Positions 3,491 to 50,572 of a stretch of 64,000 bases of DNA are shown here, one piece after another. Source of the DNA: an uncultured bacterium (lineage in GTDB: Bacteria; Patescibacteriota; Saccharimonadia; UBA4664; SCTI01); NCBI GenBank assembly GCA_963721685.1, contig CAVRJJ010000005.1, positions 167,943 to 231,942 of the forward strand. Reading direction: 5' to 3'. The position numbers and the translations under genes are program-made. Within the stretch, counting starts at the first letter, position 1. Each line of letters starts with the position of its first letter. The notes under the pieces were generated by a model. The model saw only the letters and a program-made list of their open reading frames with translations. It made no database searches and was not told where the DNA came from.

Positions 3491-3611
3491 TATTTACAGT
3501 ATAGCCCTCGCGGCCTTGGGCGCGCCGTGGTAGAGCTTTTATGGCATGTCGGCAGCCGGCACGAGCCATGATGACCATGCTCAGAAAAGTTGCTACCCGG
3601 TAAGCCCGGCC

Positions 3612-32088: not shown

Positions 32089-33915
32089 ATGTGCGGGATT
32101 ATTGGCTATGTCGGGCCCCAAAAAGCAGCCCCCATACTGCTGTCCGGTTTGCGCCGCATGGAGTACCGCGGCTACGACTCGGCTGGAATGGCATTGTTGG
32201 ATAACCACTCCATTGAGCTGATTAAGCGTAAGGGTAAAATAGCGGAATTGGCGGCGGCGGTGCCCGACGGCGTGGCGGGAACAACCGGCATCGGCCATAC
32301 CCGGTGGGCGACCCACGGTAATCCCAGCGAACGTAACGCCCACCCGCACGTGGCTAGCAAAATCGCGTTGGTCCATAACGGTATTATTGAAAATTACGTC
32401 CAGCTCAAGGAAAAACTGGCAAAGGTGGGTGTTAAAACTTATAACAGCGATACCGATTCGGAGGTACTTGCCCATTTAATCAATCATGAGCTGAGTGAAG
32501 GCCGTAAGCTGCCGGAGGCGGTACGGCGCAGCCTGCAGCAGGTGGAGGGTACATTCGGCCTGGCGGTCATCAGTTCCGATGATCCCAACGTAATGGTGGC
32601 AGCCCGCCGTGGTAGCCCCTTGCTGTTGGGAATTGGCGAAGATGCCATGTTCATTGCCAGCGATGCCAGCGCCATTATTGGTTATACCGACCGTGTCGTG
32701 TACTTGGAAGACGATCAAGTCGCGGTTTGCCATGCCCGCCAGTACCGCTTATTTGACTTAAGTCGGCGCATTCACGAACCTTCAGTCACAACCTTAAAGC
32801 TTGAATTGGCCGCCATTGAGAAGGCCGGCTATGATCATTTCCTGCTAAAAGAAATTATGGAGCAGCCGGTATCGGTAGCCAACGCCTTGCGCGGCCGTCT
32901 TGATCTTAAGGGCGGAACCAGCCATTTGGGCGGGCTTAATGTACATGATAGCTTTTTGCGCCAACAGGAACGCTTCTTAATTATTGGCTGCGGCACAGCC
33001 TATTACGCGGGATTGGTAGGAAAGTACTTATTAGAGCGCATGACCGGAATTCCGGTGGATGTTGAAGTTGGCTCGGAGTTTCGTTACCGCGACCCAGCCT
33101 TAACGCCAGGAACGCTGGCTTTGCTGATTACCCAATCAGGGGAAACCGCCGACACGATGGCGTCATTAAAGGAGCTAAAGCGCCGCGGTGTCCCAACGTT
33201 GGGACTGGTTAATGTGGTGGGCTCTTCCATTGCCCGCGGGGTGGATGGGGGAGTGTATTTGCATGCCGGACCGGAGATATCGGTAGCTTCCACCAAGGCT
33301 TTCACCGCCCAAGTGGTTGGCCAGTTGATGGTTGGGTTGCAGGTGGGCAAGGCCCGCAATTTAAGCTTGCGGACAGGGCGTGAAATTGTACGGGCGTTGG
33401 AATCATTGCCGGAGGCCATTACCGAAGCGCTTAAACTGGCTCCGGAAGTAGAAAGGCTGGCTAAGAAGTACGCTAAATTTGAGCACGCCATGTACTTAGG
33501 CCGCGATAGCTTGTTCCCGGTAGCACTGGAGGGTTCGCACAAGCTCAAAGAATGTTCCTACATCCACGCCGAAGCCTATCCGGCCGGCGAGATGAAGCAC
33601 GGCGCCAACGCCTTAATAGACAAAGACTTACTTATGATATTTCTGGCACTCAAAAATGAGCTTTACGCTAAAACCATGAGTAACCTTCAGGAAGTGCGAG
33701 CGCGGGCCGGCACGGTAATCGCCGTGGCTACCGAAGGCGACACCGCTATTAAAAAGCAAGCCCAAGACGTTTTGTATGTACCTGATGTGTCTCCCTGGAT
33801 ACAACCTTTAGTCGCCAATATTCCCCTTCAACTTTTAGCTTATTATATTGCTGTCGAACGGGGGACGGACGTTGACCAGCCCCGCAATTTAGCGAAAAGC
33901 GTGACGGTGGAGTAG
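32089..33915 (+). CDS. glmS: Glutamine--fructose-6-phosphate aminotransferase
   Basis: N-terminal MCGIIGYVG (Ntn amidotransferase Cys2), two SIS domains and the C-terminal ...VE. Confidence 0.95.
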   Translation: MCGIIGYVGPQKAAPILLSGLRRMEYRGYDSAGMALLDNHSIELIKRKGKIAELAAAVPDGVAGTTGIGHTRWATHGNPSERNAHPHVASKIALVHNGIIENYVQLKEKLAKVGVKTYNSDTDSEVLAHLINHELSEGRKLPEAVRRSLQQVEGTFGLAVISSDDPNVMVAARRGSPLLLGIGEDAMFIASDASAIIGYTDRVVYLEDDQVAVCHARQYRLFDLSRRIHEPSVTTLKLELAAIEKAGYDHFLLKEIMEQPVSVANALRGRLDLKGGTSHLGGLNVHDSFLRQQERFLIIGCGTAYYAGLVGKYLLERMTGIPVDVEVGSEFRYRDPALTPGTLALLITQSGETADTMASLKELKRRGVPTLGLVNVVGSSIARGVDGGVYLHAGPEISVASTKAFTAQVVGQLMVGLQVGKARNLSLRTGREIVRALESLPEAITEALKLAPEVERLAKKYAKFEHAMYLGRDSLFPVALEGSHKLKECSYIHAEAYPAGEMKHGANALIDKDLLMIFLALKNELYAKTMSNLQEVRARAGTVIAVATEGDTAIKKQAQDVLYVPDVSPWIQPLVANIPLQLLAYYIAVERGTDVDQPRNLAKSVTVE

Positions 33916-33996
33916 CCTCAAATTTAATTGACATTTCGCTTTTTGTTCGCCATACTAAAACCAAACACTATTATTCATAATTATGAGGGAGGTTGC

Positions 33997-34617
33997 ATGG
34001 CGGAACCGCTGACAAAACGGCAAAAGGAGGTACTGGACTACGTAACCCAGTACATCGAAGTTAATGGGTACGCGCCAAGTTACCGCGAGATTGCCGAGGC
34101 GTTTCACCTTGGTTCAGTTGCCACCGTGGCCGACCATGTTGAAACTCTGGTTGCTAAAGGCTTACTGAAAAAAGGTGATAACTCTGCCCGTTCCCTGCAA
34201 TTGGTAAAAGAAGAAGATTTCAACAGCGACCATTTCGTTGGGCTGCCTATCCTTGGTATGATTGCCGCCGGCCAGCCCATCCAAACCATGACCGGCCACG
34301 CCGAAACCTTGGAGGTGCCCCAATTTATGGTAGGCACGAAGAATTCTTACGTGCTGCAAGTGAAGGGCGACTCGATGATTGAAGAAGGCATTTTTGAGGG
34401 GGATTACGTGGTCATCCAAGAGAAGGAAGTCCCTTCCAACGGGGATATGGTTGTGGCGCTTGTTAATAACGAAGAAGCGACCTTAAAGCGCTACTATAAG
34501 GAAAAGGGCCATACCCGGTTGCAGCCGTCAAACGACGCTTATGACCCTATCATTGTGCCAGCTTCCACCCCCTTAAAAATCCAAGGAGTATGCATTGGGG
34601 TCATCCGCAAATACTAA
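33997..34617 (+). CDS. lexA: LexA repressor
   Basis: N-terminal wHTH (LTKRQKEVLDYV), S24 peptidase Ser (KGDSM) and Lys (ATLKR). Strong RBS GAGGGAGG at 33985-33992. The track start at 33928 is an upstream in-frame ATG without an RBS. Confidence 0.9.
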   Translation: MAEPLTKRQKEVLDYVTQYIEVNGYAPSYREIAEAFHLGSVATVADHVETLVAKGLLKKGDNSARSLQLVKEEDFNSDHFVGLPILGMIAAGQPIQTMTGHAETLEVPQFMVGTKNSYVLQVKGDSMIEEGIFEGDYVVIQEKEVPSNGDMVVALVNNEEATLKRYYKEKGHTRLQPSNDAYDPIIVPASTPLKIQGVCIGVIRKY

Positions 34618-34770: not shown

Positions 34771-34845
34771 TCCGGCGTAGCTCAGTGGTAGAGCAGTTGA
34801 CTGTTAATCAATTGGTCGCAGGTTCGAATCCTGCCGCCGGAGCCA
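34771..34845 (+). tRNA. tRNA-Asn (anticodon GUU), CCA encoded
   Basis: Manual fold: acceptor TCCGGCG/CGCCGGA, D arm GCTC-AGTGGTA-GAGC, anticodon arm GTTGA-CTGTTAA-TCAAT (GTT), T arm GCAGG-TTCGAAT-CCTGC, discriminator G, CCA. Confidence 0.9.
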
Positions 34846-35825: not shown

Positions 35826-36239
35826 GTGCCCTCTCTTTTTTTCGGCTTTCAAGCAGTCAAAGAGGAAAGTACTAAGAGTAATATAAAATCGGAGCTAGCT
35901 TCATTTAAAACCCCCAATGGTTGCACAGAAGTCGACAGAGCTTACCAAGCAGGAGGAATTGATGTTAAGTCCTTATGGTACGTTTACTATGAGTGCAGTG
36001 CCACGGTAGGGGTCATTCATTCTGACTTAATGAGTGCTTTGAAGAAAAATGGCTATATTGTCAGTGATGACCCTTTTGACAAAGAAGAGCATTTTGACCG
36101 GCACCTCAGCATTCCATTTTATAAATCACAAGAGTATTTGGCTTCCTGCGCCTTTGATTTTTCAGAATGGGAAGAAAGTGGTAAAACTTTTGAAAATCGT
36201 AATGTCAAAAAGATCACTCTTTCTCTAAGAAAAATATAA
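35826..36239 (+). CDS. Hypothetical protein (cassette gene)
   Basis: 137-aa ORF downstream of junction 1. No recognizable domain; start uncertain. Confidence 0.4.
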   Translation: MPSLFFGFQAVKEESTKSNIKSELASFKTPNGCTEVDRAYQAGGIDVKSLWYVYYECSATVGVIHSDLMSALKKNGYIVSDDPFDKEEHFDRHLSIPFYKSQEYLASCAFDFSEWEESGKTFENRNVKKITLSLRKI

Positions 36240-36357
36240 GCATTTAGAGTAGATTTCTTCCAGACCCTGTTTTACGCACCGAAGGTAGCGGTTAGTCGCT
36301 TAGCTTCCTCTAAATCACAATCAAACTCTGTTTCTTTGTTCTGGAACAAGACCGCTA

Positions 36358-36378
36358 GGGGGAGCCATTGCACTTATG
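36358..36378 (+). repeat. att-like junction 2 (GGGGGAGCCATTGCACTTATG)
   Basis: Motif copy preceded by CGCTAGGG, as at junction 6. Confidence 0.55.
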
Positions 36379-36383
36379 TTTGC

Positions 36384-38156
36384 TCAATTCAAGTTAAAAG
36401 AAAAATTGTCAGGATTTATATCATAGTCTGGAGCAAGTTTTTTAAATTCGGCTAAGAAAATACGATGAGCTTGGACTTTTAGTTGCGGAGGTACTTTTTG
36501 GCCTTCTGCTAAGCCAAGTCTCTGTAAGGTTCTACTTCCTGCCTCTTCAAGGGCTTTAGTGCGATGGCTGGTTAGCGATTCGGGTGCGTCCGTGGTCGGT
36601 TCACTTCCTAAGGCAATCCCTTCAGCTATTTGCGTAGGGATTTTAGGTGACGGCCTACCGACAAAAGCTTCTTGTAAATCTTCGGGCAAAGCCTTTACTA
36701 GTTCAAGAATTTTATCGGCCTCCGCGTCGCTCGCGTATAAAACGATGCCGTCAGCCCGCAATGATATCTTCTCGCCGCGTGCTGCTCGTTGTGTATCCTG
36801 GCATAGTTCCATAGCCCGATCCAGCATTTTGCCGTGGACTGTCAGACCTGATTCATTAGCTGCCTTCATAAGCGCTGAAAAAACCTTTACAGAATCCTCG
36901 GGTCTCGGGTTCAGGTAAATCCGCTTGGTCATTTCAGTATTTTGATTTCGCCCTTCCGCTTTAGCCTTAGCGTAGGAGTCACTTGACCAGTGAATAAATT
37001 GTCCTGAAACTTCTTCCTGAAAGCGTATATTAGGCCTTACCCCACGAACTTTGCCATCTGTGCTTAATATATTAATTGGTCTTGGTTCGCCGGGTATAGG
37101 AATAGGTAAGCCCTCAAACTGTATATCCTGTCCGCGAGCATGTGCACCAGCGGCAACTTTACTAAAGAATTCCCTTCCATCTGGATCGCCATCTCTTAGT
37201 TCTTGTTGATATCTAGTCCTGGCATCAACCAATAATTTCCTTTCGCCGCGACCGAGTTCGCCTGAAACCGCAATTTTTAAATTATCGGCGATCATTGCTC
37301 TGATTTGGCTATGAATATCAGCGAGCGTACCAGGCTTTTGGGCCGCTTCATAGTCATCCTGGGTCGCAGGCACTTTATCTAAAAATACCTTTAAGACGGT
37401 TGCTTCGCCTTCTGGATTTGTAAGCACTTCATTCAATAGATTCATAACGAAATCCTCGGAAAAGCCGCGCGATATTTTTTCAGCCTCTTCAAATGATGAG
37501 GCTCTAAATGGCAACTTTTCTTTTGATTTCGCTTCTTTTTCTTCTAAATCGACTAAGTCTTTGTATTCACCTAGCCTATAGTCATCATATCCCGGTGCTT
37601 TCAAGCGAATCATTTGCATCATAACTTTTTTTGCTATATTCACCTTTGCTAACTCTTCTTTGCGCCATTCTTTATCCTCACGGTTGGGACTGATACGGAC
37701 TGCATGTTCGCCATTGCTCCAAGCGTATCCAACATCAACGGCGTTCGCGCTTCCGCTTGCAATGATTTTTTGAGCGATGGCATCAATATCTGCGACATCA
37801 AGCTGGGTGGGGTAGATAGTACTTTCGGTATCTACGGGCTCTTCGGGTCTTTGATCTTCCGGGACACGCCTTCTAGTTTCCCTGACAACATTTAATAAGT
37901 TCTGGCTAGATCTATCGAATTCATCCGAATTAGTAATACTTTGAGCGACAGAATCTATAAGATTACCTCTGATGGTTTGAAGCTGTTCATCTGAGAATCG
38001 TTCGTAAGGATTTGGCGCTGTTTCGCTTTCTACTTTCGGCTGGCCAGCTTCGGGTTTTCCCTGTATAGCCTCAAGCTCTTCGGCCAAAGCTTCCCCTGAA
38101 AAGGTTTTAGTCTCAGATTGTGCTTCTGGTGTTGTAGTGCCCTCAGGATTACTCAT
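36384..38156 (-). CDS. Large acidic hypothetical protein (590 aa), no recognizable domain
   Basis: Long uninterrupted ORF with an E/D-rich N-terminus, possibly phage- or plasmid-derived. No catalytic motif identified by eye. Confidence 0.55.
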   Translation of the reverse strand: MSNPEGTTTPEAQSETKTFSGEALAEELEAIQGKPEAGQPKVESETAPNPYERFSDEQLQTIRGNLIDSVAQSITNSDEFDRSSQNLLNVVRETRRRVPEDQRPEEPVDTESTIYPTQLDVADIDAIAQKIIASGSANAVDVGYAWSNGEHAVRISPNREDKEWRKEELAKVNIAKKVMMQMIRLKAPGYDDYRLGEYKDLVDLEEKEAKSKEKLPFRASSFEEAEKISRGFSEDFVMNLLNEVLTNPEGEATVLKVFLDKVPATQDDYEAAQKPGTLADIHSQIRAMIADNLKIAVSGELGRGERKLLVDARTRYQQELRDGDPDGREFFSKVAAGAHARGQDIQFEGLPIPIPGEPRPINILSTDGKVRGVRPNIRFQEEVSGQFIHWSSDSYAKAKAEGRNQNTEMTKRIYLNPRPEDSVKVFSALMKAANESGLTVHGKMLDRAMELCQDTQRAARGEKISLRADGIVLYASDAEADKILELVKALPEDLQEAFVGRPSPKIPTQIAEGIALGSEPTTDAPESLTSHRTKALEEAGSRTLQRLGLAEGQKVPPQLKVQAHRIFLAEFKKLAPDYDINPDNFSFNLN

Positions 38157-38295
38157 ATACTCATTAAACGCTACCTATGCTTCAAAGTCTAACCTGGGAA
38201 ATAGCCGCGCGATTGACAAGTTTTCGCCAGGTTGAAGTAACTTCCCGATTTCTATCACCTCGTGCAGATATCCAGTTCGTAACGTCCGGGGCAAA

Positions 38296-38314
38296 GGGAG
38301 CCGTTGCACTTATG
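38296..38314 (+). repeat. att-like junction 3 (GGGAGCCGTTGCACTTATG)
   Basis: Motif copy in the divergent region between the 590-aa gene and the 171-aa gene. Confidence 0.55.
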
Positions 38315-38338
38315 TTTATAACCTGACACTATGAAGCT

Positions 38339-38854
38339 ATGATGAATCTCTATCATTTTGTTCCAGAAAACATGCAAGGGTCTGTTCTCTATTCACTTAA
38401 TGACATGAAGACAAAAATTCCCAAGCTTTTTAACCAACAGGCAGCTAAATATAAAGAGAGGGAGGAGGTGAAAGAAACGGCTATTCCGGGCTTAGGTGGC
38501 TGGAATGATGTTATCCATTTGTCTCCAATAGATCCGAACAAGGTTATGGCGGCGCTAAAAAATGCTAGTGTCCCGACCGACTTTGCATGGAAAGCGTTTC
38601 AGATCAACGCAGACACACTTGATTGGGCTAAGCTTATTATCATGGTGACTGTTAAAGACGAAGATGGTTACCACAAAGAGTTTCTGCCTTTTACCAAAGA
38701 GAACTACGAAAAGCACAATGACGTCCCCGAACTTACAAAGCAGTACTATTCAGAATGCGTTGCAAAAGGGGAACAGCCTTTAACCTATGGCGGTGCTCCT
38801 CATGTACTATATAAGGGCGTCATTGACACAAAAAGTTTGAAAATTATCTCTTAG
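38339..38854 (+). CDS. Hypothetical protein (171 aa)
   Basis: ORF directly after junction 3. No recognizable domain. Confidence 0.5.
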   Translation: MMNLYHFVPENMQGSVLYSLNDMKTKIPKLFNQQAAKYKEREEVKETAIPGLGGWNDVIHLSPIDPNKVMAALKNASVPTDFAWKAFQINADTLDWAKLIIMVTVKDEDGYHKEFLPFTKENYEKHNDVPELTKQYYSECVAKGEQPLTYGGAPHVLYKGVIDTKSLKIIS

Positions 38855-38877
38855 GGGGAGCCAATTTTGCATTTATA
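38854..38877 (+). repeat. att-like junction 3b, degenerate (GGGGGAGCCAATTTTGCATTTATAG)
   Basis: Starts at the stop codon of the 171-aa gene. Shares the GGAGCCA...TTGCA..TTAT skeleton. Confidence 0.4.
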
Positions 38878-39010
38878 GACGCCAAAGCTGCCTCTTCTAA
38901 GGGTAGCTCTCTGTTATGGGTTGGAGTCATTTAGATATGCAGCACGCCATCTTTTATTTTTTCTTCTAGCATAAGGAAAAAGGAAAAAATATATTTCAAA
39001 AAGCTAATGA

Positions 39011-39080
39011 TGACGACATATGATACGACATAGTATTAATAGAGTTGACATAGGACACGACATAGTGTAGTATTAAGACA
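39011..39080 (+). repeat. Two tandem ~32-bp iteron-like units with GACATA cores (39015, 39027, 39047, 39059) upstream of the DUF4325 gene
   Basis: GACATATGATACGACATAGTATTAATAGAGTT / GACATAGGACACGACATAGTGTAGTATTAAGA. Core spacing 12/20/12. Confidence 0.55.
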
Positions 39081-39082
39081 TT

Positions 39083-40111
39083 ATGACTATTCAGGAACAG
39101 ATTCAAGCTGTCGCCAAAAACAAGAAAGTTTTCAAAACTTCAGACGTAGCCAAGGAAGCACCAGAGTTTTCAAGGCAATACATTAGTTCGATAATTAGCG
39201 ATCAAGTAAGAAAAGGTACCCTCGTAAGGGAGGGATCAGGTCGCTGGTCTACTTACGCGCTTCCACAATATAAAGATTATTTAGGCCATAGATTACGAAG
39301 GCGCCTAAAGCTTAATGGCCTCAAAGAGCATGAAGTACTTGACGATATCATGCGGGTTAGTACCTTGCTAACAAGGATACCTGAAAATATTCAAAGCATA
39401 TTCAACTATGCTTTTTCTGAAATGCTAAATAACGCCATAGATCACTCTCGCTCTAAAAATGCTGTAACTGAAGTCATAGAAGAAGATGAAGGGCTCAAAT
39501 TCATAGTTGATGACTTCGGGGTTGGGGTTTTCCGTAATGTTATGCAAGAAAGGAACCTTAACTCTGAGCTAGAGGCAATCCAGGACTTACTTAAAGGCAA
39601 AACAACTACAGCCCCTCAGGCCCATTCAGGCGAAGGTATTTTCTTTACTTCTAAAGCAGCCGATGTGTTTATGCTAGAAAGCTTTGGTTTAAGATTAAGA
39701 ATAGACAATAAGATTAAAGATATTTTCGTGGAAGAGGTTGGCACGGAGAAAAAGGGTACCAGAGTAACTTTTGAAGTTTCCACAAAATCAAAGAAGCACT
39801 TAGCAGATTTATTCGCTAAATATCAGACTCACTCTGAAGAACCAGCGTTTGATAAGACCGAAATCCAAGTAAGGCTTTACACCATGGGTACTATCTATGT
39901 CTCCAGGTCACAGGCTAGAAGGGTGTTAACTGGTCTGAACAAATTTCGCACAGTAATCCTTGATTTCGAAAATGTTCCAACTATTGGGCAAGCATTTGCA
40001 GACGAGATTTTTAGAGTATTCAAAAATGCGAATCCAAATATCACAATTAAGATCGCAAACGCGAATGAGGCAGTTCAGTTTATGATTATACGATCCCAGT
40101 CATCCAGTTGA
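39083..40111 (+). CDS. wHTH - GHKL (RsbW/SpoIIAB-like) ATPase - STAS-like (DUF4325) single-chain protein
   Basis: N box FSEMLNNAIDHS, G1 IVDDFGVGV, G2 HSGEGIFFTS. The C-terminus TVILDFENVPTIGQAFADEIF resembles an anti-sigma-antagonist/DUF4325 fold. N-terminal ~90 aa is helical and basic. Confidence 0.65.
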   Translation: MTIQEQIQAVAKNKKVFKTSDVAKEAPEFSRQYISSIISDQVRKGTLVREGSGRWSTYALPQYKDYLGHRLRRRLKLNGLKEHEVLDDIMRVSTLLTRIPENIQSIFNYAFSEMLNNAIDHSRSKNAVTEVIEEDEGLKFIVDDFGVGVFRNVMQERNLNSELEAIQDLLKGKTTTAPQAHSGEGIFFTSKAADVFMLESFGLRLRIDNKIKDIFVEEVGTEKKGTRVTFEVSTKSKKHLADLFAKYQTHSEEPAFDKTEIQVRLYTMGTIYVSRSQARRVLTGLNKFRTVILDFENVPTIGQAFADEIFRVFKNANPNITIKIANANEAVQFMIIRSQSSS

Positions 40112-40150
40112 CATAAGATTTAGACATAGAATTTTAGTTGCCGACATAAC
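40106..40150 (+). repeat. Iteron-like GACATA units downstream of the DUF4325 gene (cores at 40110, 40123, 40143)
   Basis: TTGACATAAGATTTAGACATAGAATTTTAGTTGCCGACATAAC. Same 13/20 spacing and orientation as the upstream array. Confidence 0.5.
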
Positions 40151-40181
40151 ATCCAATTTATTGATATGGCATGTTCACTGC

Positions 40182-40201
40182 GGAGAGCCATTGCACTTAT
40201 G
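40182..40201 (+). repeat. att-like junction 4 (GGAGAGCCATTGCACTTATG)
   Basis: Motif copy adjacent to the 3' end of the minus-strand DUF1905 gene. Confidence 0.55.
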
Positions 40202-40202
40202 T

Positions 40203-40514
40203 TTAGAACTCTCGCAACTTGAAAGATATGCGTACTTTATCACCTAGCTCAAGCTTTTCGCTTTTTCGCACCTTAGTATTTATAGCAATGAAGTGTGTGC
40301 CATCGCCCATAGGCAGCAGGGAGGTTGGCCAGGTACTACTTCCTAGGGTTGCCTCAACAGCAATCAACCCCCGGTCTGCAAGTTCATGCAGCGGTTGACT
40401 AACGCTCAACGGTGCGGCGACATAATACCAACCCCCTTCCTGGGGGAAAAGTTGCAGTACCCCACTAAAGCTAAATGGCTTCATGAGCCAATTATATATG
40501 ATGATCAATAGCAA
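40203..40514 (-). CDS. DUF1905-like small protein (N-terminal half of a YdeI-type protein)
   Basis: 103 aa with a pattern that fits DUF1905 (GGWYYVAAP ... HFIAIN ... GDKVRISF). Confidence 0.5.
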   Translation of the reverse strand: MLLIIIYNWLMKPFSFSGVLQLFPQEGGWYYVAAPLSVSQPLHELADRGLIAVEATLGSSTWPTSLLPMGDGTHFIAINTKVRKSEKLELGDKVRISFKLREF

Positions 40515-40548
40515 TCTTTATCTTGATAGCTTTTAGAACGGCTAAAAC

Positions 40549-41457
40549 ATGCTTGCTATAATGAGCGGGATGCCAGAACCAACTCAGCCAAATTATTCCA
40601 AGCAAATAAGTTCAGATTTTCCTAACTTGGTTGTTGAAAAAGTAGAAAAACTTGGTACGGGTTGGGATCATGTTGCGCTGGAAGTAAATGATTCTTTGAT
40701 CTTCCGTTTTCCGCGGGATATTTCTGATGTAGATGAGATTTCCCAGACTGTCGTTTACGAGACGAAGGTATTGCGGCATCTGCAGGACAAACTGCCCGTT
40801 GCTATACCGGACCCACAGCATATTGCTCCCGATCATGCTTATTTTGGCTATCCAAAACTCCAAGGCGAAAAGCTCATTGATATTTTGCCAAGCTTTAGCG
40901 AAGCTGACAAAGCCGCCTTGTGGGACGATTGGGTGGATATAGCGACTGCCATTCATCAGAATGTATCTGTTGATATGGCTCGCAAACTTGGTGTGCCGAA
41001 CTTGGATATTCATATAGAGACAGCAAAGGAGGTTTTCAGCTTAGAAAATATTGACTCTCAGGTTGTAAGCTTTGCCCAGAATACTATAGAAGCGGCGGAA
41101 GCAATTGACATGAATAAGCTGCCACTTTTGTTTATCCATAACGACCTACAATTTCATAATTTGCTCGTCGACCCTGAAACAAAACGGGTTATCGCGGTCA
41201 TTGACTGGACAGATGTTTGTATAGGTACGACGGAGAGGGAGTTAGCAATGTGGGAGTGGTGCCATGATGATCAGCTAGATGAAGTGGCTAAAAGATATAC
41301 AGCTAAGACAGGTAGGGCGGTTGACAGAGACCAGGCAAAAGTTTTTAGGAAGATTGAAGAAGTAGGCGATTACGTCGAGCAGATAAAAAGTGGTGATCTT
41401 GAAGGGGTCGAAGAATCCTTAGCACATATTCGAAAATGGATTGCCGAAGTCGCATGA
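40549..41457 (+). CDS. Aminoglycoside/choline-kinase-like phosphotransferase (APH family)
   Basis: Catalytic loop HNDLQFHNLLVD and the Mg-binding IDWTDVCIG (Brenner motif and DFG-like D). Confidence 0.7.
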   Translation: MLAIMSGMPEPTQPNYSKQISSDFPNLVVEKVEKLGTGWDHVALEVNDSLIFRFPRDISDVDEISQTVVYETKVLRHLQDKLPVAIPDPQHIAPDHAYFGYPKLQGEKLIDILPSFSEADKAALWDDWVDIATAIHQNVSVDMARKLGVPNLDIHIETAKEVFSLENIDSQVVSFAQNTIEAAEAIDMNKLPLLFIHNDLQFHNLLVDPETKRVIAVIDWTDVCIGTTERELAMWEWCHDDQLDEVAKRYTAKTGRAVDRDQAKVFRKIEEVGDYVEQIKSGDLEGVEESLAHIRKWIAEVA

Positions 41458-41505
41458 GGTATACGCGTCCATTTTGCGTAATATTATGAATGATATGATA
41501 ATGCA

Positions 41506-41853
41506 ATGAGCCACTTGGAAACCTTTTTTATCCTAAGTCTCGCAACGCAATTAGTCCATTCAATTGAAGAGTTAACAACGGGTTTTCACAAACAATACTA
41601 TCTCTTTAAGATGTCCTTTAAGGCATTTCTAGCCTTTGAAATATTATTTACCCTGTTCTGGGTGGGAGTGCTTCTGCTGCCAGACTCTCCGTCCAAGGGC
41701 TACCTGCAAGCTTTCTTCCTCATCCTGATGTTTGCCAATGGTGTGCAACATCTAGTGTGGTGGGGAACTGTAAAAAAGTATGTTCCGGGTTTAATAACGG
41801 CTTTCGTCCATGCCGCACTATTTTTGGCCTTTTACTATAAGAGCATTTTTTAA
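41506..41853 (+). CDS. HXXEE-domain small membrane protein
   Basis: HSIEEL motif near the N-terminus and 3-4 transmembrane helices. Confidence 0.45.
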   Translation: MSHLETFFILSLATQLVHSIEELTTGFHKQYYLFKMSFKAFLAFEILFTLFWVGVLLLPDSPSKGYLQAFFLILMFANGVQHLVWWGTVKKYVPGLITAFVHAALFLAFYYKSIF

Positions 41854-42527
41854 TGGCATACTACAAACGTTTTCAACTTGTTACCCACTTTTTTCTCTGG
41901 CCTCGGCTGCTTGCGTGGTTTTACCGCAAAGGCATGGATGACGTTAAGAGTCTTGGGCTTAAACCTGACTTTAACAAGGAAGATTTTTCCTGTCTGCTCT
42001 GCGGGGTGAGCGGAGAAATAACAGCCGAGGTCTTCATTAACTTTGTTATCAGTAAAAATAAGCAAGCCAACATTATCATTATTGATCTTGGCGAAGAACA
42101 GGTAGCCGCTGTTCAGTCGCTCGTAAACCGGAAATACAAAGATCATAACATTAGCGTTAAACAAATGAACGTCCTCGATATATCAAAGCATTTTAAGCCA
42201 AACTCCTTTGATTGGATTGAAACGGACGGTCTGGTTGAATACTTAGACAAGCCAGGAATTCAAAGTCTATTAACGCAATGGAAAGCGTTGCTAAGACCGG
42301 GCGGCTTCATTACTACCCGTGACTTTGCCAGCTCATCTATACCAGGCCGATTACTCGATAAGTTTCGTATGTGGTTTATGAAAAATTACCTAACCCTCAA
42401 TGGCTACGTTCATACCAAGCAGGAACTAGATGAGGCATTTAGAAAAATCGGCTTTATCTTTAATTCCGGGCCGACGCCAATCCCGACCTTCAAGCGTTAT
42501 GCGCTCATAGAAAAGGACACTCGCTAA
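41853..42527 (+). CDS. Class I SAM-dependent methyltransferase-like protein
   Basis: Rossmann-like IIIDLGEEQ / NVLDISKHF segments, about 224 aa. Start overlaps the upstream stop. Confidence 0.5.
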   Translation: MAYYKRFQLVTHFFLWPRLLAWFYRKGMDDVKSLGLKPDFNKEDFSCLLCGVSGEITAEVFINFVISKNKQANIIIIDLGEEQVAAVQSLVNRKYKDHNISVKQMNVLDISKHFKPNSFDWIETDGLVEYLDKPGIQSLLTQWKALLRPGGFITTRDFASSSIPGRLLDKFRMWFMKNYLTLNGYVHTKQELDEAFRKIGFIFNSGPTPIPTFKRYALIEKDTR

Positions 42528-42716
42528 GAGGTGGGGAGGAATCAATAATTGAAATACCAACACACACCGAAGCCGATCTAATTAAGTTTAATGAGGTATT
42601 TTCTTTCCTATCATAAGTGGCACTTTCGGGATCAGCCAGAAGGTAAGAGTAGTCGCTTAGTATGGTATAGGTCCAAATCAAACGCTGTTCCTTTGTTCGG
42701 AAGCAAGTCAACCAGT

Positions 42717-42734
42717 GGAGCCATTGCACTTATG
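42717..42734 (+). repeat. att-like junction 5 (GGAGCCATTGCACTTATG)
   Basis: Motif copy 47 bp upstream of the pilin-like gene. Confidence 0.55.
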
Positions 42735-42780
42735 CTTATATTATTGCTACACTGAGCTTAATTAACTCAAGAGAGCACTC

Positions 42781-43320
42781 ATGATAAAGCTGAACCAAAA
42801 GGGATTTACCGGCTTTGAAGTTGTATTAATCGTTATTGCCCTGGTAGCTATTGGAGCAGCGGGCTACTTCGCGTATGAAGCGCGGCAAGATAAAACCGTT
42901 CTTGTAGCCGCACCAAAGAAAACAGAGAAGACGATTCAAGCTCAACCACAGCCTGTAAGTAGTAAGCCAGAAACAACTAGTGTTTATAATATTAAAGATC
43001 TTGGAGTTGAATTTGCGCTGCCCTCAAGTATCTCCGATCTATCGTATAAAGTCGTCAACTTAGGTGGTGAGCAAGCGGTTAGCTCTGTGACTTTTTCAAC
43101 TAAGCGGTTGGAAGCGGCAGGCTGTTCACTTGATTCAGCGCCTCTTGGACATTTAACATATACGGAAGGAAAGGGAGGTATTCTAGTTGCCTCCGCGAGA
43201 GGATCCAACCTTTATTATATAGAGCCCAAAGGAAGCTGTAGCGCAGACCCAAGCCTTAGAAACTGGCAGAAGCTGAAGGAAGCTCTCAAAACTACTGTGA
43301 GTGACTACAAGGGAGGGTAA
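42781..43320 (+). CDS. Prepilin-type (type IV pilin / ComGC-like) N-terminal cleavage/methylation protein
   Basis: MIKLNQKG|FTGFEVVLIVIALVAIGAAGYFAY: Gly at -1, Phe at +1, Glu at +5, then a hydrophobic helix. Confidence 0.6.
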   Translation: MIKLNQKGFTGFEVVLIVIALVAIGAAGYFAYEARQDKTVLVAAPKKTEKTIQAQPQPVSSKPETTSVYNIKDLGVEFALPSSISDLSYKVVNLGGEQAVSSVTFSTKRLEAAGCSLDSAPLGHLTYTEGKGGILVASARGSNLYYIEPKGSCSADPSLRNWQKLKEALKTTVSDYKGG

Positions 43321-43423
43321 GTAAAGCTGGCTCGTTGGGTGGGCCAGTCGGGAGCCATAAATAGTAGACTCAGCTCATTGACTGGGCATCGGCCGGCAAA
43401 TTAGATGCCTCTTTCTAGCTATT

Positions 43424-43675
43424 TCAACGATGATCGCAGCCGGCCCAGCAACAGGGACGGCGCATTCCCTCTATAAGCTCCGTGCGCGTTCTTTCAATAC
43501 GCCGTGCCCTCGTCTCAGTCTTCTTAGCTTCTTCAACCCAGCATATCCATTCATTGCGCGCCAGCGGTGTAATATCTTCCCATGCCGCTAAAGCCGTCGA
43601 GGTAGAAAGCAGGGCTTTTTTTAAGTCCGCTGGCATTTCGTGTGCCACACCCCCAGCGATTTCTTTTGTAGCCAT
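43424..43675 (-). CDS. YdeI/OmdA C-terminal-domain protein
   Basis: ITPLARNEWICWVEEAKKTETRARRIERT matches the OmdA/YdeI C-terminal pattern. Confidence 0.5.
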   Translation of the reverse strand: MATKEIAGGVAHEMPADLKKALLSTSTALAAWEDITPLARNEWICWVEEAKKTETRARRIERTRTELIEGMRRPCCWAGCDHR

Positions 43676-43710
43676 AAACTTATACTACTCCAGGCTACAA
43701 GTAACACGCT

Positions 43711-43727
43711 AGGGCATTGCACTTATG
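43711..43727 (+). repeat. att-like junction 6, degenerate (AGGGCATTGCACTTATG) followed by TGTTATAAT
   Basis: Preceded by CGCTAGGG as at junction 2. An extended -10-like TGTTATAAT lies downstream. Confidence 0.5.
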
Positions 43728-44700
43728 TTATAATTTGCTGGTGAAACCATTAGATTCTCCTCAAGCGGAGGCAGCTCAGATACAAAAGCAGACGAAGCAT
43801 TCCAAGCGCAAGCTTGCTGTAGTTGTTTTCATCCTACTGCTTGCTCTAGCTATAATTGGGATAGGCGGTACCTACCTCTATCGGGTGCAGCAAACTCAGA
43901 ACACAATAAAAGCCGGAATACACGACCTTAGCCAGTCGGCTAATCGAATTACGCCTTTTACGGCCGGAACGGTAGCTGAGGGTGACCGCGCGGATTTCAC
44001 TCGTGAGCTCAACAATCTCGAGAATACAATCAATGATACCCAGTTCAAAATAGACCAGCATTCCTCCCTATTGAATTCAAAAAAGGCTATGGATGAATAT
44101 AAATCCTTTCTTTCTCAAATGGAGGGGTATGTTAAGCTGGCATCCGGCATGAGCAAAGATGTGTCGGTTATAACGGAAGCTGATCTTAAGAAGCTCAATC
44201 AGTCGGGGGACGCGGCTAAGCGTTCACAGGAAAAGCTAAGAGAGAATTTTACTTTTATTCCGGAGTCTTTATCGAATGAAGTGTTTAATATATCGCTTAT
44301 TTTACAAAAGTCGAAAAAAAGCATAGATGATACGAAGTTGGCCGAAGACGCAAAAGCAAAGTCGGAAGAGAAGTTGCAAATAGACCAGAGAACCGCCGAG
44401 ACCAATGCCGCGGCTTTCCTCGACGCTTTTATTGCAGGTAATGCCGACAGGATGAAACGCTATATGACCGCCGCATTTATCAAAGAGTACGACTTCGCCA
44501 ACATTAAGCCCGAGTATCGCGAGGTATCTACCCCCGTATCCTACCGGGTGGTTCAAAGCCAGCGGGTGAATAGTACCATCGAGGTTACCTCAACAGTCAC
44601 ATACGCTTATGGCCAGGGCCAGAGTACAGCCAACTACAAATATATTTTGGTTGAAGACCCTAAAGCCGCGACATGGATGATCAACGCCCAAGCGCAGTAA
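43717..44700 (+). CDS. Hypothetical membrane-anchored protein (327 aa)
   Basis: N-terminal transmembrane helix, then a coiled-coil-like region and a C-terminal domain. TTG start inside junction 6. Confidence 0.45.
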   Translation: MHLCYNLLVKPLDSPQAEAAQIQKQTKHSKRKLAVVVFILLLALAIIGIGGTYLYRVQQTQNTIKAGIHDLSQSANRITPFTAGTVAEGDRADFTRELNNLENTINDTQFKIDQHSSLLNSKKAMDEYKSFLSQMEGYVKLASGMSKDVSVITEADLKKLNQSGDAAKRSQEKLRENFTFIPESLSNEVFNISLILQKSKKSIDDTKLAEDAKAKSEEKLQIDQRTAETNAAAFLDAFIAGNADRMKRYMTAAFIKEYDFANIKPEYREVSTPVSYRVVQSQRVNSTIEVTSTVTYAYGQGQSTANYKYILVEDPKAATWMINAQAQ

Positions 44701-45848
44701 AAATTCTTGAGGCAAACAAAAAAACCACTAGCAAATTGAAGTTATTCGTAATTCTGCTTATACCGTTAATGCTGGTTGGCGTTCTTTTTTTTGCAGTCTG
44801 GGAATACTCAAAAGCCAAGAGCTTGTACCGGCAGGCCGTGGTATATAACGAGGAGGGAAAGTTTAAGAAGGCGATAAGCAATCTCCAAATCGCGGATAAC
44901 ACCTTTTTCGCCCTTGACTACCAAGAGAAAATTGTCGCACTTCGAAAAGAAGTAGTTCTTTGGACAAAAACCCAGGCGTCGATTGAACAGGCCAGCGGTT
45001 TACTTGCAAAAGGGCAGGCAGACGAGGCACTGAAATTACTTGAAGGTATTGATCCCCGTTTTCCCCGTTTTAAGGTTGCAATCCAGCTTAGATACAGGGC
45101 CCATGAAATAAAAGAAACAGAGCGGCTTCGATCACTTCCAGCCGCAACTGTTCCTATTACGCAAATTTCGCTTCAAAGCACCACAATGGCAGACGACCAG
45201 CCCGATGATATCAGCGGACATCAAGTCCACATGGTTTATGCTGTGCCTACGGGTACCCCGTCGAGAGGCTACAACGATAATGGGGCAATGTCGACTTCAG
45301 TTGCCGCTATCCAGAACTGGCTAAGCCAGCAAACCGGCGGAAAGAGCTTGCGCATGGACACACACAATGGAAAGCTCGATGTCACTTACCTTCAACTGAA
45401 AAAAAGCGAATCCGAATTAGGCACAGGGCCCGAGCTATGGGGAAGACTATCGCTTGAACTCAGGCAAAGCGGCCTTTATAGCCACGATAAGTTATACCTT
45501 GTTTACTACGAGGGAAAGTCCCATCTTTGCGGTCAAGCAAACTGGCCAGGACTTTACGCGTATGTCTATCTGGGTACTTGTGGCGCCCATGGGTTGACGC
45601 AAAATGCAGGGAGGGTACAGACCGCTGAGTTAACCGCTCTTCATGAGCTCATGCATGCCTTTGGAGCCGTGCCGGGATGCGCTCCACATTTTGACGGAAG
45701 TGCCCATATTAACGATATTCCTGCCGACCTTATGTACTATGGGGTTCATATGGGAGAAGCAGCTCAATTGGATCCGGGTCGTGATGATTATTATGGCCAC
45801 GGACGCGAGGACTGTCTCGATATTGCGACGAGCCCCTACTTACAGTGA
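44673..45848 (+). CDS. Membrane-anchored HExxH putative zinc metallopeptidase
   Basis: N-terminal transmembrane helix. TALHELMHAFGAV (HExxH) in the C-terminal domain. Confidence 0.5.
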   Translation: MDDQRPSAVKILEANKKTTSKLKLFVILLIPLMLVGVLFFAVWEYSKAKSLYRQAVVYNEEGKFKKAISNLQIADNTFFALDYQEKIVALRKEVVLWTKTQASIEQASGLLAKGQADEALKLLEGIDPRFPRFKVAIQLRYRAHEIKETERLRSLPAATVPITQISLQSTTMADDQPDDISGHQVHMVYAVPTGTPSRGYNDNGAMSTSVAAIQNWLSQQTGGKSLRMDTHNGKLDVTYLQLKKSESELGTGPELWGRLSLELRQSGLYSHDKLYLVYYEGKSHLCGQANWPGLYAYVYLGTCGAHGLTQNAGRVQTAELTALHELMHAFGAVPGCAPHFDGSAHINDIPADLMYYGVHMGEAAQLDPGRDDYYGHGREDCLDIATSPYLQ

Positions 45849-45932
45849 GAGCTATTTGGCTCTTTTCCAAAAATCGGTTTGCTCTTATGCCTTCTCTATG
45901 TAATTATCAATTTAATAACTTGGTGAGCATTC

Positions 45933-46421
45933 ATGGTAAAACACAATCAAAAAGGGATGGCAGCGCTTTGGGTGGTCCTGATTGTAGTAGTGGTGGCGGC
46001 TGTGGGAACCGCTGGCTATTTTGCGTACAAGGCCGCCACCCCTAAAGCCGCTCACAATCCTACGGCAGGCTCCCAAGAATTAACGGTAAGCGAGTGGGGG
46101 GTGAAGCTAAGCGTACGAGACGCCGCTAAAATAACCTATTCAGTTGCCGGCTCTACTGGGAGAGAGGGCGGGCCAGCTTATGAAGCCTCAGCCATACCCG
46201 TAATCAAACAAACGTTCTTGAAAGATAAAAACTGCAGCTTAGGGATCGCGCTCTATCGAACCAAAACAGAGCAATCAACGTTAATTGGCCAAACCAAAAA
46301 ACTAGGAGACTACTTCTATTTTGTCGGCGGATCCCCGGACAGTTGCGCTAGTAAATCTGATGATCAGCTAAAAGGACGGATACTGGCTGATTTCAGAATT
46401 GAAAACCTCTCTGCCAAATAA
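45933..46421 (+). CDS. Pilin-like paralog (degenerate prepilin motif)
   Basis: The N-terminus MVKHNQKGMAALWVVLIVVVVAAVGTAGYFAYKAA parallels the 42781 gene but lacks Glu at +5. Confidence 0.45.
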   Translation: MVKHNQKGMAALWVVLIVVVVAAVGTAGYFAYKAATPKAAHNPTAGSQELTVSEWGVKLSVRDAAKITYSVAGSTGREGGPAYEASAIPVIKQTFLKDKNCSLGIALYRTKTEQSTLIGQTKKLGDYFYFVGGSPDSCASKSDDQLKGRILADFRIENLSAK

Positions 46422-48862: not shown

Positions 48863-50572
48863 ATGCACCTCATCTCAAAACGTTTCCCTCTCTCTATGGC
48901 TGCCATAATGGCATTCGGCCTGATGCTCGCCCTGCTGTCAATTCAGCCGGTACGGGCGGCGGATCCGGTAAAGCTTTCACTCGGCCCTCCATCGCAAAAT
49001 GTCAGCACTGGCTCTACCTTTCAAATGGCAATCAATTTAACCACTTTCGGCCAAGCGGTTGATACGGTTTCGGCATCGTTAACCTATCCCAGTGATCGCC
49101 TTACGTGCCAAAGCGTCACCACCACCTCGGATTTTACCTTTATTCCCCAACCGGATGTATGCAGCGGAGGAACCATCCTGGTTCAAAGGGGGCGAAGCAG
49201 TAATTACACGGCAAACGGGGTAATCGCCCTTGTTACCTTCAAGGCATTAATTCCAGGTTCAGCACCTGTACACCTTAATGACTCTTCAGTAGCGCTTACT
49301 GGGGGCGAGGATGTGCCTTACACCACCGAAGACGCTAATTATTTGGTGGTAAGCGGCCCTAAAATCTACGCCTGGACCTATGCTGGCCAGACGAGCAGTA
49401 AGCCTTTGAATAACATTCTTCCCGGCCAAACGGCAACCTTCACCGTGAGCGCCCTTAACTCAGGGTTTTATACCTGGACCAATAGCGGTGCCAATCCTGT
49501 TCGGCTCGGCGCTAGCCGACCCAACGACCGTACCAGCCCGTTTGCTACCCCCTCATGGCTGAGTCCGGCCAGAGCGGCAACATTAAATGAAGCCAGTGTC
49601 GCTCCCGGCCAAACAGGAACATTTACCTTTTCCGTTCAAACCCCGTCCCAGCCGGGGAATTATAAAGAGTACTACAATCTTTTGGCCGAAGGCATCACTT
49701 GGATGAATGACCCCGGTCTTTATTTTGGCGTTACTGTTTCCCCTCCTACCTACACCTGGTCCTTGGTTGGCCAAGGCGCTTACACCGATGCCTCAAAAGC
49801 TACACCGTTAAACCTGTCCCAACTAACCCCCAACCAGACAGGTTGGCTTGAACTTAAAGTCAGAAATACCGGCAACATGACGTGGACGAACTCCGGCCCT
49901 AACCCCGTACGCATCGGGAGCTCGCGTCCGCTTGAACGGGTGAGCCGTTACGCGACCCCCGCTTGGCTAACACCAAGCCGCCCCGGCAATTTGGTAGAGG
50001 CATCAGTTGCTCCGGGAGCCGTAGGTACCTTTGAGTTCCCCATAACCGCTCCATCAACCACGGGCACTTACATTGAATACTTTACCCCCTTGGCCGAAGG
50101 CATCACTTGGATGAACGACATTGGGCTAAGCTTTTATACGGTGGTTAGCCGAACCTACACCTGGTCCTTGGTTGGCCAAGGCGCTTACACCGATGCCTCA
50201 AAAGCTACACCGTTAAACCTGTCCCAACTAACCCCCAACCAGACAGGTTGGCTTGAACTTAAAGTCAGAAATACCGGCAACATGACGTGGACGAACTCCG
50301 GCCCTAACCCCGTACGCATCGGGAGCTCGCGTCCGCTTGAACGGGTGAGCCGTTACGCGACCCCCGCTTGGCTAACACCAAGCCGCCCCGGCAATTTGGT
50401 AGAGGCATCAGTTGCTCCGGGAGCCGTAGGTACCTTTGAGTTCCCCATAACCGCTCCATCAACCACGGGCACTTACATTGAATACTTTACCCCCTTGGCC
50501 GAAGGCATCACTTGGATGAACGACATTGGGCTAAGCTTTTATACGGTGGTTAATCCCGGGGGCGGGAAGTAG
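48863..50572 (+). CDS. Secreted surface protein: cohesin-like N-terminal domain plus three four-Trp repeat domains (the last two identical)
   Basis: Signal peptide, a cohesin-like beta-sandwich segment (KLSLGPPSQNVSTGSTFQMAINLTT...), then repeats homologous to those of 24358..26280. TTGCGC-N16-TATAAT promoter at 48797-48831. Confidence 0.7.
   Translation: MHLISKRFPLSMAAIMAFGLMLALLSIQPVRAADPVKLSLGPPSQNVSTGSTFQMAINLTTFGQAVDTVSASLTYPSDRLTCQSVTTTSDFTFIPQPDVCSGGTILVQRGRSSNYTANGVIALVTFKALIPGSAPVHLNDSSVALTGGEDVPYTTEDANYLVVSGPKIYAWTYAGQTSSKPLNNILPGQTATFTVSALNSGFYTWTNSGANPVRLGASRPNDRTSPFATPSWLSPARAATLNEASVAPGQTGTFTFSVQTPSQPGNYKEYYNLLAEGITWMNDPGLYFGVTVSPPTYTWSLVGQGAYTDASKATPLNLSQLTPNQTGWLELKVRNTGNMTWTNSGPNPVRIGSSRPLERVSRYATPAWLTPSRPGNLVEASVAPGAVGTFEFPITAPSTTGTYIEYFTPLAEGITWMNDIGLSFYTVVSRTYTWSLVGQGAYTDASKATPLNLSQLTPNQTGWLELKVRNTGNMTWTNSGPNPVRIGSSRPLERVSRYATPAWLTPSRPGNLVEASVAPGAVGTFEFPITAPSTTGTYIEYFTPLAEGITWMNDIGLSFYTVVNPGGGK
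49748..50557 (+). repeat. Perfect (by eye, 100% identical) 405-bp x 2 intragenic tandem duplication
   Basis: 49748..50152 equals 50153..50557 (ACCTACACCTGGTCCTTGGTTGGCCAAGGCGCTTACACC...). It encodes two identical 135-aa repeat units. Confidence 0.8.

Follow-up and report, generated by a model that had tools for sequence, protein, structure and literature searches.

Why should a single bacterial gene be enclosed, on both sides and in one orientation, by arrays of the same short repeat? The question is raised by a locus in a 64,000-nucleotide stretch of DNA (hereafter the window; contig CAVRJJ010000005.1, positions 167,943 to 231,942) from the genome of a member of the Saccharimonadia, a lineage of the Candidate Phyla Radiation (CPR, or Patescibacteria). 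Here seven copies of GACATA, all on the + strand, flank a gene at 39083-40111 that encodes a protein of 342 amino acids with a winged-helix (wHTH) domain, a GHKL domain and a DUF4325 (STAS-like) domain. We consider it probable, though by no means settled, that the two arrays are cognate operators of the enclosed one-polypeptide regulator, the upstream one being autoregulatory and overlapping the gene's own promoter and the downstream one being auxiliary. The features of the locus, in order along the window, are as follows.

39005..39014, + strand: left edge of the conserved module, TAATGATGAC, directly before site R1; similarity in the upstream alignment A2 (the window and homologue loci L081, L083, L087 and L084) begins about 10 bp before R1.
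39014..39021, + strand: putative site R1, CGACATAT, with its GACATA core at 39015; the core is invariant in A2.
39026..39033, + strand: putative site R2, CGACATAG, core at 39027, 12 bp past R1.
39046..39053, + strand: putative site R3, TGACATAG, core at 39047, 20 bp past R2; it includes the -35 element TTGACA.
39058..39065, + strand: putative site R4, CGACATAG, core at 39059, 12 bp past R3, in the spacer between -35 and -10.
39068..39073, + strand: predicted -10 element, TAGTAT, ending 9 nt before the ATG; GTGTAGTAT is invariant in close relatives.
39077..39082, + strand: degenerate fifth copy, GACATT, adjoining the ATG; weakly conserved and not kept in L084.
39083..40111, + strand: gene for the 342-residue regulator, with the winged helix at 39083-39262, GHKL at 39380-39787 and DUF4325 at 39860-40102 (boundaries from the structural model).
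40109..40116, + strand: putative site R1', TGACATAA, core at 40110; it shares bases with the TGA stop codon at 40109-40111.
40122..40129, + strand: putative site R2', AGACATAG, followed by AATT, core at 40123, 13 bp past R1'; GACATAGAATT is invariant in alignment A3.
40142..40149, + strand: putative site R3', CGACATAA, core at 40143, 20 bp past R2'; right edge of the conserved module.

The four upstream and three downstream cores listed in the first-pass annotation of this DNA are exact matches in one orientation, and the alternating spacing that it described, with units of about 32 bp, was recovered on measurement: start to start, the sites lie 12, 20 and 12 bp apart upstream and 13 and 20 bp apart downstream, giving units of 32-33 bp. 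The extended site consensus in the window is YGACATAG. In total number GACATA is unremarkable, with 24 sites in the window compared with 18.5 ± 4.6 in shuffles. Its clustering is not: when all hexamers were compared, GACATA had the highest count in any 60 bp (four of its 15 + strand copies), and seven of those 15 copies fall inside 1.2 kb. We also scanned for a pair-plus-third unit, defined as two sites 11-13 bp apart and a third at 19-22 bp (GACATAG or GACATAA, with at most one mismatch). It occurs twice in the window, at the two arrays and nowhere else in the 64 kb, compared with a mean of 0.02 and a maximum of 1 in 200 composition-preserving block shuffles. Chance clustering was rejected on the hexamer comparison and the shuffles together, and the pattern is more than background. 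A weak - strand pair at 45885/45896 is no more than chance would produce. There is also an eighth + strand site (CGACATAA, at 40418-40425), within the convergent DUF1905 gene and 130 bp short of the APH gene; standing alone, it is compatible with chance. Tandem Repeats Finder returned only fragments (39007-39032 and 40110-40134), because the repeat units are interrupted. A generic repeat finder gave a 20-nt double unit (39015-39034 and 39047-39066, 90% identity) and, as shared between the two arrays, the 7-bp cores and their spacing and nothing longer. Rfam gave no match in 38700-40700 at E values up to 1.

The enclosed protein is, by its modeled folds, a single-chain regulator composed of a winged helix, a SpoIIAB/RsbW-like GHKL domain and a STAS domain. 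The wHTH-GHKL-STAS (DUF4325) architecture initially assigned to it agrees both with a Pfam match to DUF4325 (E 5.6e-15) and with an AlphaFold2 model built on 115 homologues (mean predicted local distance difference test score 82); Pfam matches to HATPase_c and HATPase_c_2 were below cut-off. In the model, residues 1-60 form the winged helix (three helices and a beta hairpin; residues 31-44 are the recognition helix and 48-59 the hairpin of the wing), residues ~100-235 form the GHKL domain, with a disordered ATP lid, and residues ~260-340 form the C-terminal alpha/beta STAS-like domain. Foldseek placed the central domain closest to SpoIIAB (1til; E 7.6e-05, template modeling score 0.74 on the target), with further matches to 1l0o, 1th8 and RsbW (6m37), and matched the C-terminal part to STAS folds, namely RsbS (6jhk) and the STAS domains of SLC26 transporters. 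The ATP-binding motifs E113, N116, N117, D144xGxG148 and G183xG185 are invariant in the family, as is G302, and T300 is found in at least 90% of sequences. Thr300-x-Gly302 opens STAS helix 2, and we take the position of T300 to be that of the phosphorylated Ser58 (Ser58-x-Gly60) in SpoIIAA.

In having a kinase-like fold, a STAS fold and invariant ATP motifs, the protein resembles the SpoIIAB-SpoIIAA and RsbW-RsbV pairs. It differs from them in that kinase, STAS and DNA-binding domains are fused in one chain, that Pfam analysis of the neighbors found no sigma factor gene near it, and that its output would be direct DNA binding instead of sequestration. The winged helix had only weak matches, all to AbiEi (PF13338, 16.6 bits against a cut-off of 25; PADLOC AbiEi, E 0.0088). 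Neither PADLOC nor NCBIfam assigned the protein or its neighbors to a meaningful family, and searches against the Protein Data Bank gave no sequence relative better than E 0.09 and no solved structure. In the literature we found no function for the DUF4325 regulator family (three incidental mentions of DUF4325 only) and nothing on fused partner-switch/HTH proteins or on CPR promoters.

The family is large: of the 8000 candidates scored in the protein search, each a 90%-identity cluster, 7997 had E ≤ 1e-5, a lower bound for the family, and clustering at 50% gave 2219 clusters with E ≤ 1e-3 and 656 at E ≤ 1e-30. Nearly all of the best 120 matches are ~340 residues long, with 55-83% identity, and their named sources are many CPR lineages. 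Relatives at 30-45% identity were found on 43 viral or prophage contigs of IMG/VR (L139-L181); those inspected mostly share the full-length architecture; Shine-Dalgarno-led starts are common among them, and in several the gene is preceded by palindromic or paired direct sites. A stand-alone DUF4325 gene has been noted in the lysogeny region of a Francisella prophage (PMC7924643). We collected homologue loci from genomes (80) and metagenomes (50) and added several more by exact protein look-up. No neighboring gene is conserved across these loci, and the downstream neighbors differ in size and strand. In six of them (L031, L033, L039, L040, L043 and L074) the family gene adjoins a gene for a Fic-wHTH protein, of which the 64-kb window has none. 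The Fic protein of L031 (307-1338, - strand) has a C-terminal winged helix homologous to the N-terminal winged helix of the family, and its gene has an array of its own upstream (~1340-1400), three CTTTACAAT repeats at 12 bp. L074 has a second operator copy, 1.45 kb ahead of the real gene, that comes with the gene's first 14 nt (ATGGATATTGAGAA) and has a terminator after it; the two operator copies (~2480-2560 and 3920-3993) bracket the Fic-wHTH gene (2680-3741).

When gene and repeats were compared across these relatives, the upstream array proved to be family-wide. Within 130 bp upstream of the gene, same-strand repeats number at least three in 115 of 117 loci and at least four in 96. Their spacings fall mainly into two classes that alternate, 11-12 bp (168 of 386) and 20-22 bp (125 of 386), where each class amounts to 6.9% in control windows from the same loci. 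Of 113 distinct upstream windows of homologues, 86 had the pair-plus-third unit; among 5773 control windows, 68 had it (1.2%). No further unit was found within ~4 kb of the gene in the other loci. The repeat period of 32-33 bp corresponds to three helical turns and the distance within a pair to one; because the spacings are whole turns, all sites lie on one face of the DNA. Relatives with 82-83% identity have exactly the same cores, -35 and -10, but differ in the DNA between the sites and outside the module. The first-pass annotation had likened the repeats to multimeric operator sites with helical-turn spacing, and this geometry, together with the promoter overlap described below, is what such sites would be expected to have.

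Two departures from the common layout are instructive. In the upstream array of L138 (2330-2500) a ~35-bp block, CACGACATAGAACACGACATAGAAATTTAGTAG, is present twice, giving five or more sites, and this sequence shows that arrays can grow by local duplication. In the distant clade L070-L080 the pair is kept and the third site is inverted (TTGACAACTT ... AAGTTGTCAA), which points to a flexible link between the DNA-binding domains and the core. The nearest well-known arrangement is that of the PhoB/OmpR boxes, direct repeats 11 bp apart that overlap or adjoin the -35 and are read head to tail by winged helices. Shared with these are the one-turn direct repeats, the presence of several boxes on one DNA face at a promoter, and the fusion of the DNA-binding domain to a signaling domain. 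Unlike PhoB and OmpR, however, the window protein has no receiver domain but SpoIIAB-like GHKL and STAS domains, its main target would be its own gene, and a second array stands at that gene's 3' end.

What reads the repeats? Their sequence varies by lineage: most are TTGACAAT/TTTACAAT, and other classes are ..ACAAC, ..ACATAG (the clade of the window), ..TCATAG, ..ACAGTA/ACACTA and ..ACATT. These classes follow the residues at the tip of the wing (window residues 51-57). Wing tip GSTA is paired with ACAAC in 10 of 10 loci and G.T[R/K/N] with ACAAT in ~55 loci; G.GRW is paired with (A/T)CATAG, and GSGAF and GSGPR with ACAGTA/ACACTA, unlike GGGPH (L095 and L096), which is paired with TGACAAT/TGACAnT. 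On a neighbor-joining tree of the GHKL and STAS parts only, the ACAAC/GSTA and CATAG/GRW classes each take several separate positions, so that wing and site keep together irrespective of how the remainder of the protein evolved. Mainly because of this co-variation, an indirect and phylogenetically uncorrected argument, the encoded winged helix is most probably the reader of the repeats, a role for which it had been put forward from the single sequence.

The upstream array overlaps a predicted promoter. TTGACA (39045-39050) and TAGTAT (39068-39073), separated by 17 nt, match a sigma-70-like promoter at 10 of 12 positions, the joint-best match in 38800-40600. R1 and R2 lie just upstream of this promoter, its -35 is within R3, and R4 is in its 17-nt spacer. 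The equivalent promoter is the best match in L081, L136 and L138, with the same layout over the sites; in the majority motif class, TTGACA comes from site 2 and TACAAT from site 3, with a spacer of 17-18 nt. Family-wide, the distance from the end of the -10 to the ATG is mostly 6-10 nt, and in the window it is 9 nt; the mRNA is therefore likely to be leaderless or nearly so. In L138 transcription is predicted to begin downstream of the annotated ATG, directly ahead of the conserved N-terminal Met. Shine-Dalgarno-like motifs were found at 8 of 108 family genes against 42 of 235 control open reading frames (ORFs), which are rough controls with uncertain start sites. On the - strand, a promoter-like match (ATGTCA-18-TATAAT, 40114..40085) is directed antisense into the 3' end of the gene, its -35 being the reverse of R1'. 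By eye, in the rows of alignment A3, it is partly kept in L081 and not in L084, and its position over the conserved FMI codons makes coincidence the probable explanation.

The 3' array is confined to few lineages, about five of them among relatives at 71-83% identity, where it persists although the flanks are unrelated. At least two sites within 99 bp past the stop codon were found in 11 of 106 loci, compared with 1.9% of control windows. As in the window, the 12/20 geometry is kept in the L081 group, L084, L136 and L138, and it is partly kept in L030 (two sites). In the L081 group and L084 (82-83% identity) conservation takes in all four upstream sites, the promoter and the downstream sites; of the last, the third is degenerate in L081 and L084 (AAAATAGAAT), with the 12/20 spacing kept. 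L136 (74% identity) has TAGTCATAG, GCATAG and AAATAG at 12/20, mirroring its own upstream variant GTCATAG, and its array is placed between the stop codon and an intrinsic terminator (2715-2732) directly past it. L138 (71% identity) has GGACATAG, AGACATAG and TGACATAG at 12/20. A clade with palindromic operators likewise has a second operator past the stop codon, in L075, L076, L079 and L080. The remark in the first-pass annotation that arrays on both flanks are unusual is therefore fair, with the restriction that conservation of the 3' array is limited to the window protein's subclade and a few other lineages.

We regard the 3' array as probably an auxiliary operator of the enclosed protein, serving for looping or as a roadblock. 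The strongest competitor, which we hold to be unlikely but worth serious attention, is that it combines operator and promoter of a second transcript under the same protein; this could come from a downstream gene, be a small RNA or run antisense to the convergent DUF1905 gene. Its three-site geometry is the family's minimal promoter unit, L138 has TAGACA-18-CATAGT with an upstream TG, the downstream operator copy of L075 has TAGACA-18-TATAAT, and a + strand ORF is found 150-250 bp onward in L081, L084 and L138. In the window, however, the scan found no + strand promoter in the 3' array, and the gene that follows it is convergent, as it is in L075 and L079; in L136 the terminator comes directly past the array, and the downstream genes are unrelated among lineages. 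The convergent next genes and the L136 terminator show that, as a rule, the 3' array does not serve as promoter of the gene after it.

Returning to the reading of both arrays as operators of the enclosed regulator, the observed features (a conserved site geometry, repeats that change with the wing, sites lying over the promoter, and the modeled folds) can be joined in one proposed mechanism. Several winged-helix domains, held by a dimerising GHKL/STAS core, would bind the one-turn-spaced repeats head to tail and cooperatively. With R3 and R4 over promoter elements, bound protein would compete with RNA polymerase at the promoter, or reposition it, and occupation of these two sites would block the promoter and so produce negative autoregulation. 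R1-R2, and in the clade of the window R1'-R3', would contribute cooperativity. The 3' array may loop to the 5' array, ~1095 bp away, and sharpen autorepression, or may serve as a roadblock where the gene ends. DNA binding would probably be switched when the GHKL domain binds ATP or the STAS domain is phosphorylated (with Thr300 as the candidate residue), through a change in oligomerisation or in the exposure of the DNA-binding domains, in which case expression would answer to the energy or stress state of the cell.

Loops between two operators are familiar from lambda OL/OR, which flank cI with three sites per side, from lac O1/O2 and from gal OE/OI. The window locus is like these in having multi-site operators on both sides of or within the regulated unit and, as proposed, one oligomerising repressor. 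It is unlike them in that its sites are direct repeats, 1.1 kb apart, that the loop is a conjecture, and that its 3' array has no clear promoter. A winged helix that controls its own gene is known from the AbiEi antitoxin of the type IV AbiE system, where the N-terminal winged helix autoregulates through repeats in its own promoter (PMC3985639, PMC7319586). The window protein would similarly bind several repeats in its own promoter cooperatively; unlike the AbiEi operators, which are inverted repeats, its sites are direct, the Pfam score is sub-threshold, and neither neighbor of the gene matches AbiEii (DUF1814) in Pfam.

Several points weigh against our preferred interpretation. The link between protein and site comes from position and from a co-variation that is phylogenetically structured. 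The majority repeat, TTGACAAT/TTTACAAT, resembles the -35/-10 consensus, and part of its conservation could be that of promoter sequence. Most of the family lacks the 3' array, as do some fairly close relatives, L088 (71% identity), L001 and L041, and in L138 it matches a promoter consensus (TAGACA-18-CATAGT), so that it may act as a promoter in some lineages. The case for leaderless mRNA is weak, and the control genes of the Shine-Dalgarno counts have uncertain starts. Finally, we found no other target of the regulator in the window or within 4 kb of the gene elsewhere, and a transcription factor that acts only on itself is biologically incomplete. The regulon may be located in other parts of the genome; otherwise the module must be largely self-contained.

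The latter possibility has a stronger form, to which we give little credence. The 5' array, gene and 3' array would constitute a self-contained, horizontally exchanged module in which one protein joins a DNA-binding domain to an entire partner switch (kinase plus STAS) and in which ATP-dependent oligomerisation bridges both operators and loops the gene, operating as an energy or stress switch or as a single-gene addiction- or defense-like element. This would fit the variable accessory-island contexts, the prophage relatives and the occasional Fic-toxin neighbors. If true, the self-looping module would represent an undescribed principle of regulation, confined for the most part to CPR bacteria.

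Binding of the repeats by some other factor is more doubtful still. RNA polymerase might recognize them as stacked -35/-10-like hexamers, that is, as tandem promoters, for the two forms of the commonest repeat equal the -35 and -10 consensus; or a paralogous Fic-wHTH protein might do so, since such proteins have a homologous winged helix, adjoin the gene in the six loci named above and in one case have their own CTTTACAAT array. The GACATAG core of the window clade, however, is not a promoter hexamer and the geometry is kept there all the same, the 3' arrays are mostly without a promoter match, the motif class tracks the wing tip of the adjacent protein, and the window has no Fic-wHTH gene.

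Some features of the locus hint at mobility. The conserved module breaks off ~10 bp to the left of R1 and ~45 bp to the right of the stop codon, and the DNA beyond is unrelated in relatives. Gene and both arrays are conserved as a unit in four contexts with unrelated flanks, and L081 and L083 encode an identical protein next to different upstream neighbors. That the arrays are the ends of a small mobile cassette, or insertion scars in the form of attL/attR-like direct repeats left by recombination in the operator, is nevertheless very improbable. In its favor are the four unrelated contexts, the duplicate operator bracketing the Fic gene in L074, the distant homologues on viral contigs and the position of the window locus in low-GC DNA beside a tRNA-Asn gene. 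Against it, there is no recombinase, transposase or integrase in the module or ~5 kb around it, nor in Pfam scans of the ORFs of 32-48 kb; the arrays share just the 7-bp cores and spacing, with no longer identical core; and a promoter role accounts for the upstream array in more than 100 loci that have no 3' array. The mobile or invertible module envisaged in the first-pass annotation finds no backing here, as no inverted repeat joins the arrays and, being direct repeats all on the + strand, they cannot mediate inversion.

Its other suggestion, a replication- or partition-like element with the arrays as origin iterons or a parC-like site bound by the winged-helix protein, is extremely unlikely: helically phased direct repeats beside a winged-helix gene and an A/T-rich stretch at 38949-39010 do recall iterons and R1 parC, whose Rep (winged-helix) or ParR (ribbon-helix-helix) proteins also autoregulate, but the protein has GHKL and STAS domains and no Rep, ParA or ParM domain, genes for replication or partition are missing from the locus, relatives do not keep the A/T-rich stretch (A2), cumulative GC skew rises steadily through the region without a turn, the contexts are chromosomal in more than 100 genomes, and the cores, at 7-8 bp, are much shorter than typical iterons (17-22 bp).

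The probable operator array is of a known general kind; it belongs to a very widespread, uncharacterised CPR regulator that has an unusual architecture and, at the 3' end of its own gene, a conserved second putative operator. CPR bacteria make up a large share of bacterial diversity, and we know of little published work on their gene regulation. With a wing-tip/repeat recognition code, a fixed geometry and an apparently leaderless promoter, the family should be unusually tractable for experiments. If the fused kinase and STAS domains gate DNA binding, the protein would be a one-protein partner switch, a logic so far known for sigma-factor control. The conserved 3' operator, for its part, would make the locus a natural example of a repressor gene bracketed by operators of its own.

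The surroundings of the regulator gene in the window comprise one ORF without match and genes for DUF1905, APH and HopA1-like proteins (Pfam). The annotated features around it are these.

32089-33915: GlmS gene, upstream of tRNA-Asn, on the core-genome side of the low-GC stretch.
33928-34617: LexA homologue, immediately upstream of tRNA-Asn, also on the core-genome side.
34771-34845: tRNA-Asn, after which comes the low-GC stretch.
36384-38156, - strand: HopA1-like gene (Pfam), in the low-GC stretch.
40203-40514, - strand: DUF1905 gene (Pfam), convergent to the regulator gene.
40549-41457: APH gene (Pfam), in the low-GC stretch.
41506-41853: HXXEE gene (Pfam), in the low-GC stretch.
41853-42527: S-adenosylmethionine (SAM) methyltransferase gene (Pfam), in the low-GC stretch.

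The low-GC stretch spans ~36000-46000, with a GC fraction of 0.41-0.47 against ~0.50-0.55 elsewhere, and its genes are of the accessory type. Together with the tRNA-Asn this context suggested a genomic island, but no integrase was found with Pfam. Farther to the right, at 49748-50552, the window contains a perfect 405-bp tandem duplication (2.0 copies, 100% identity).

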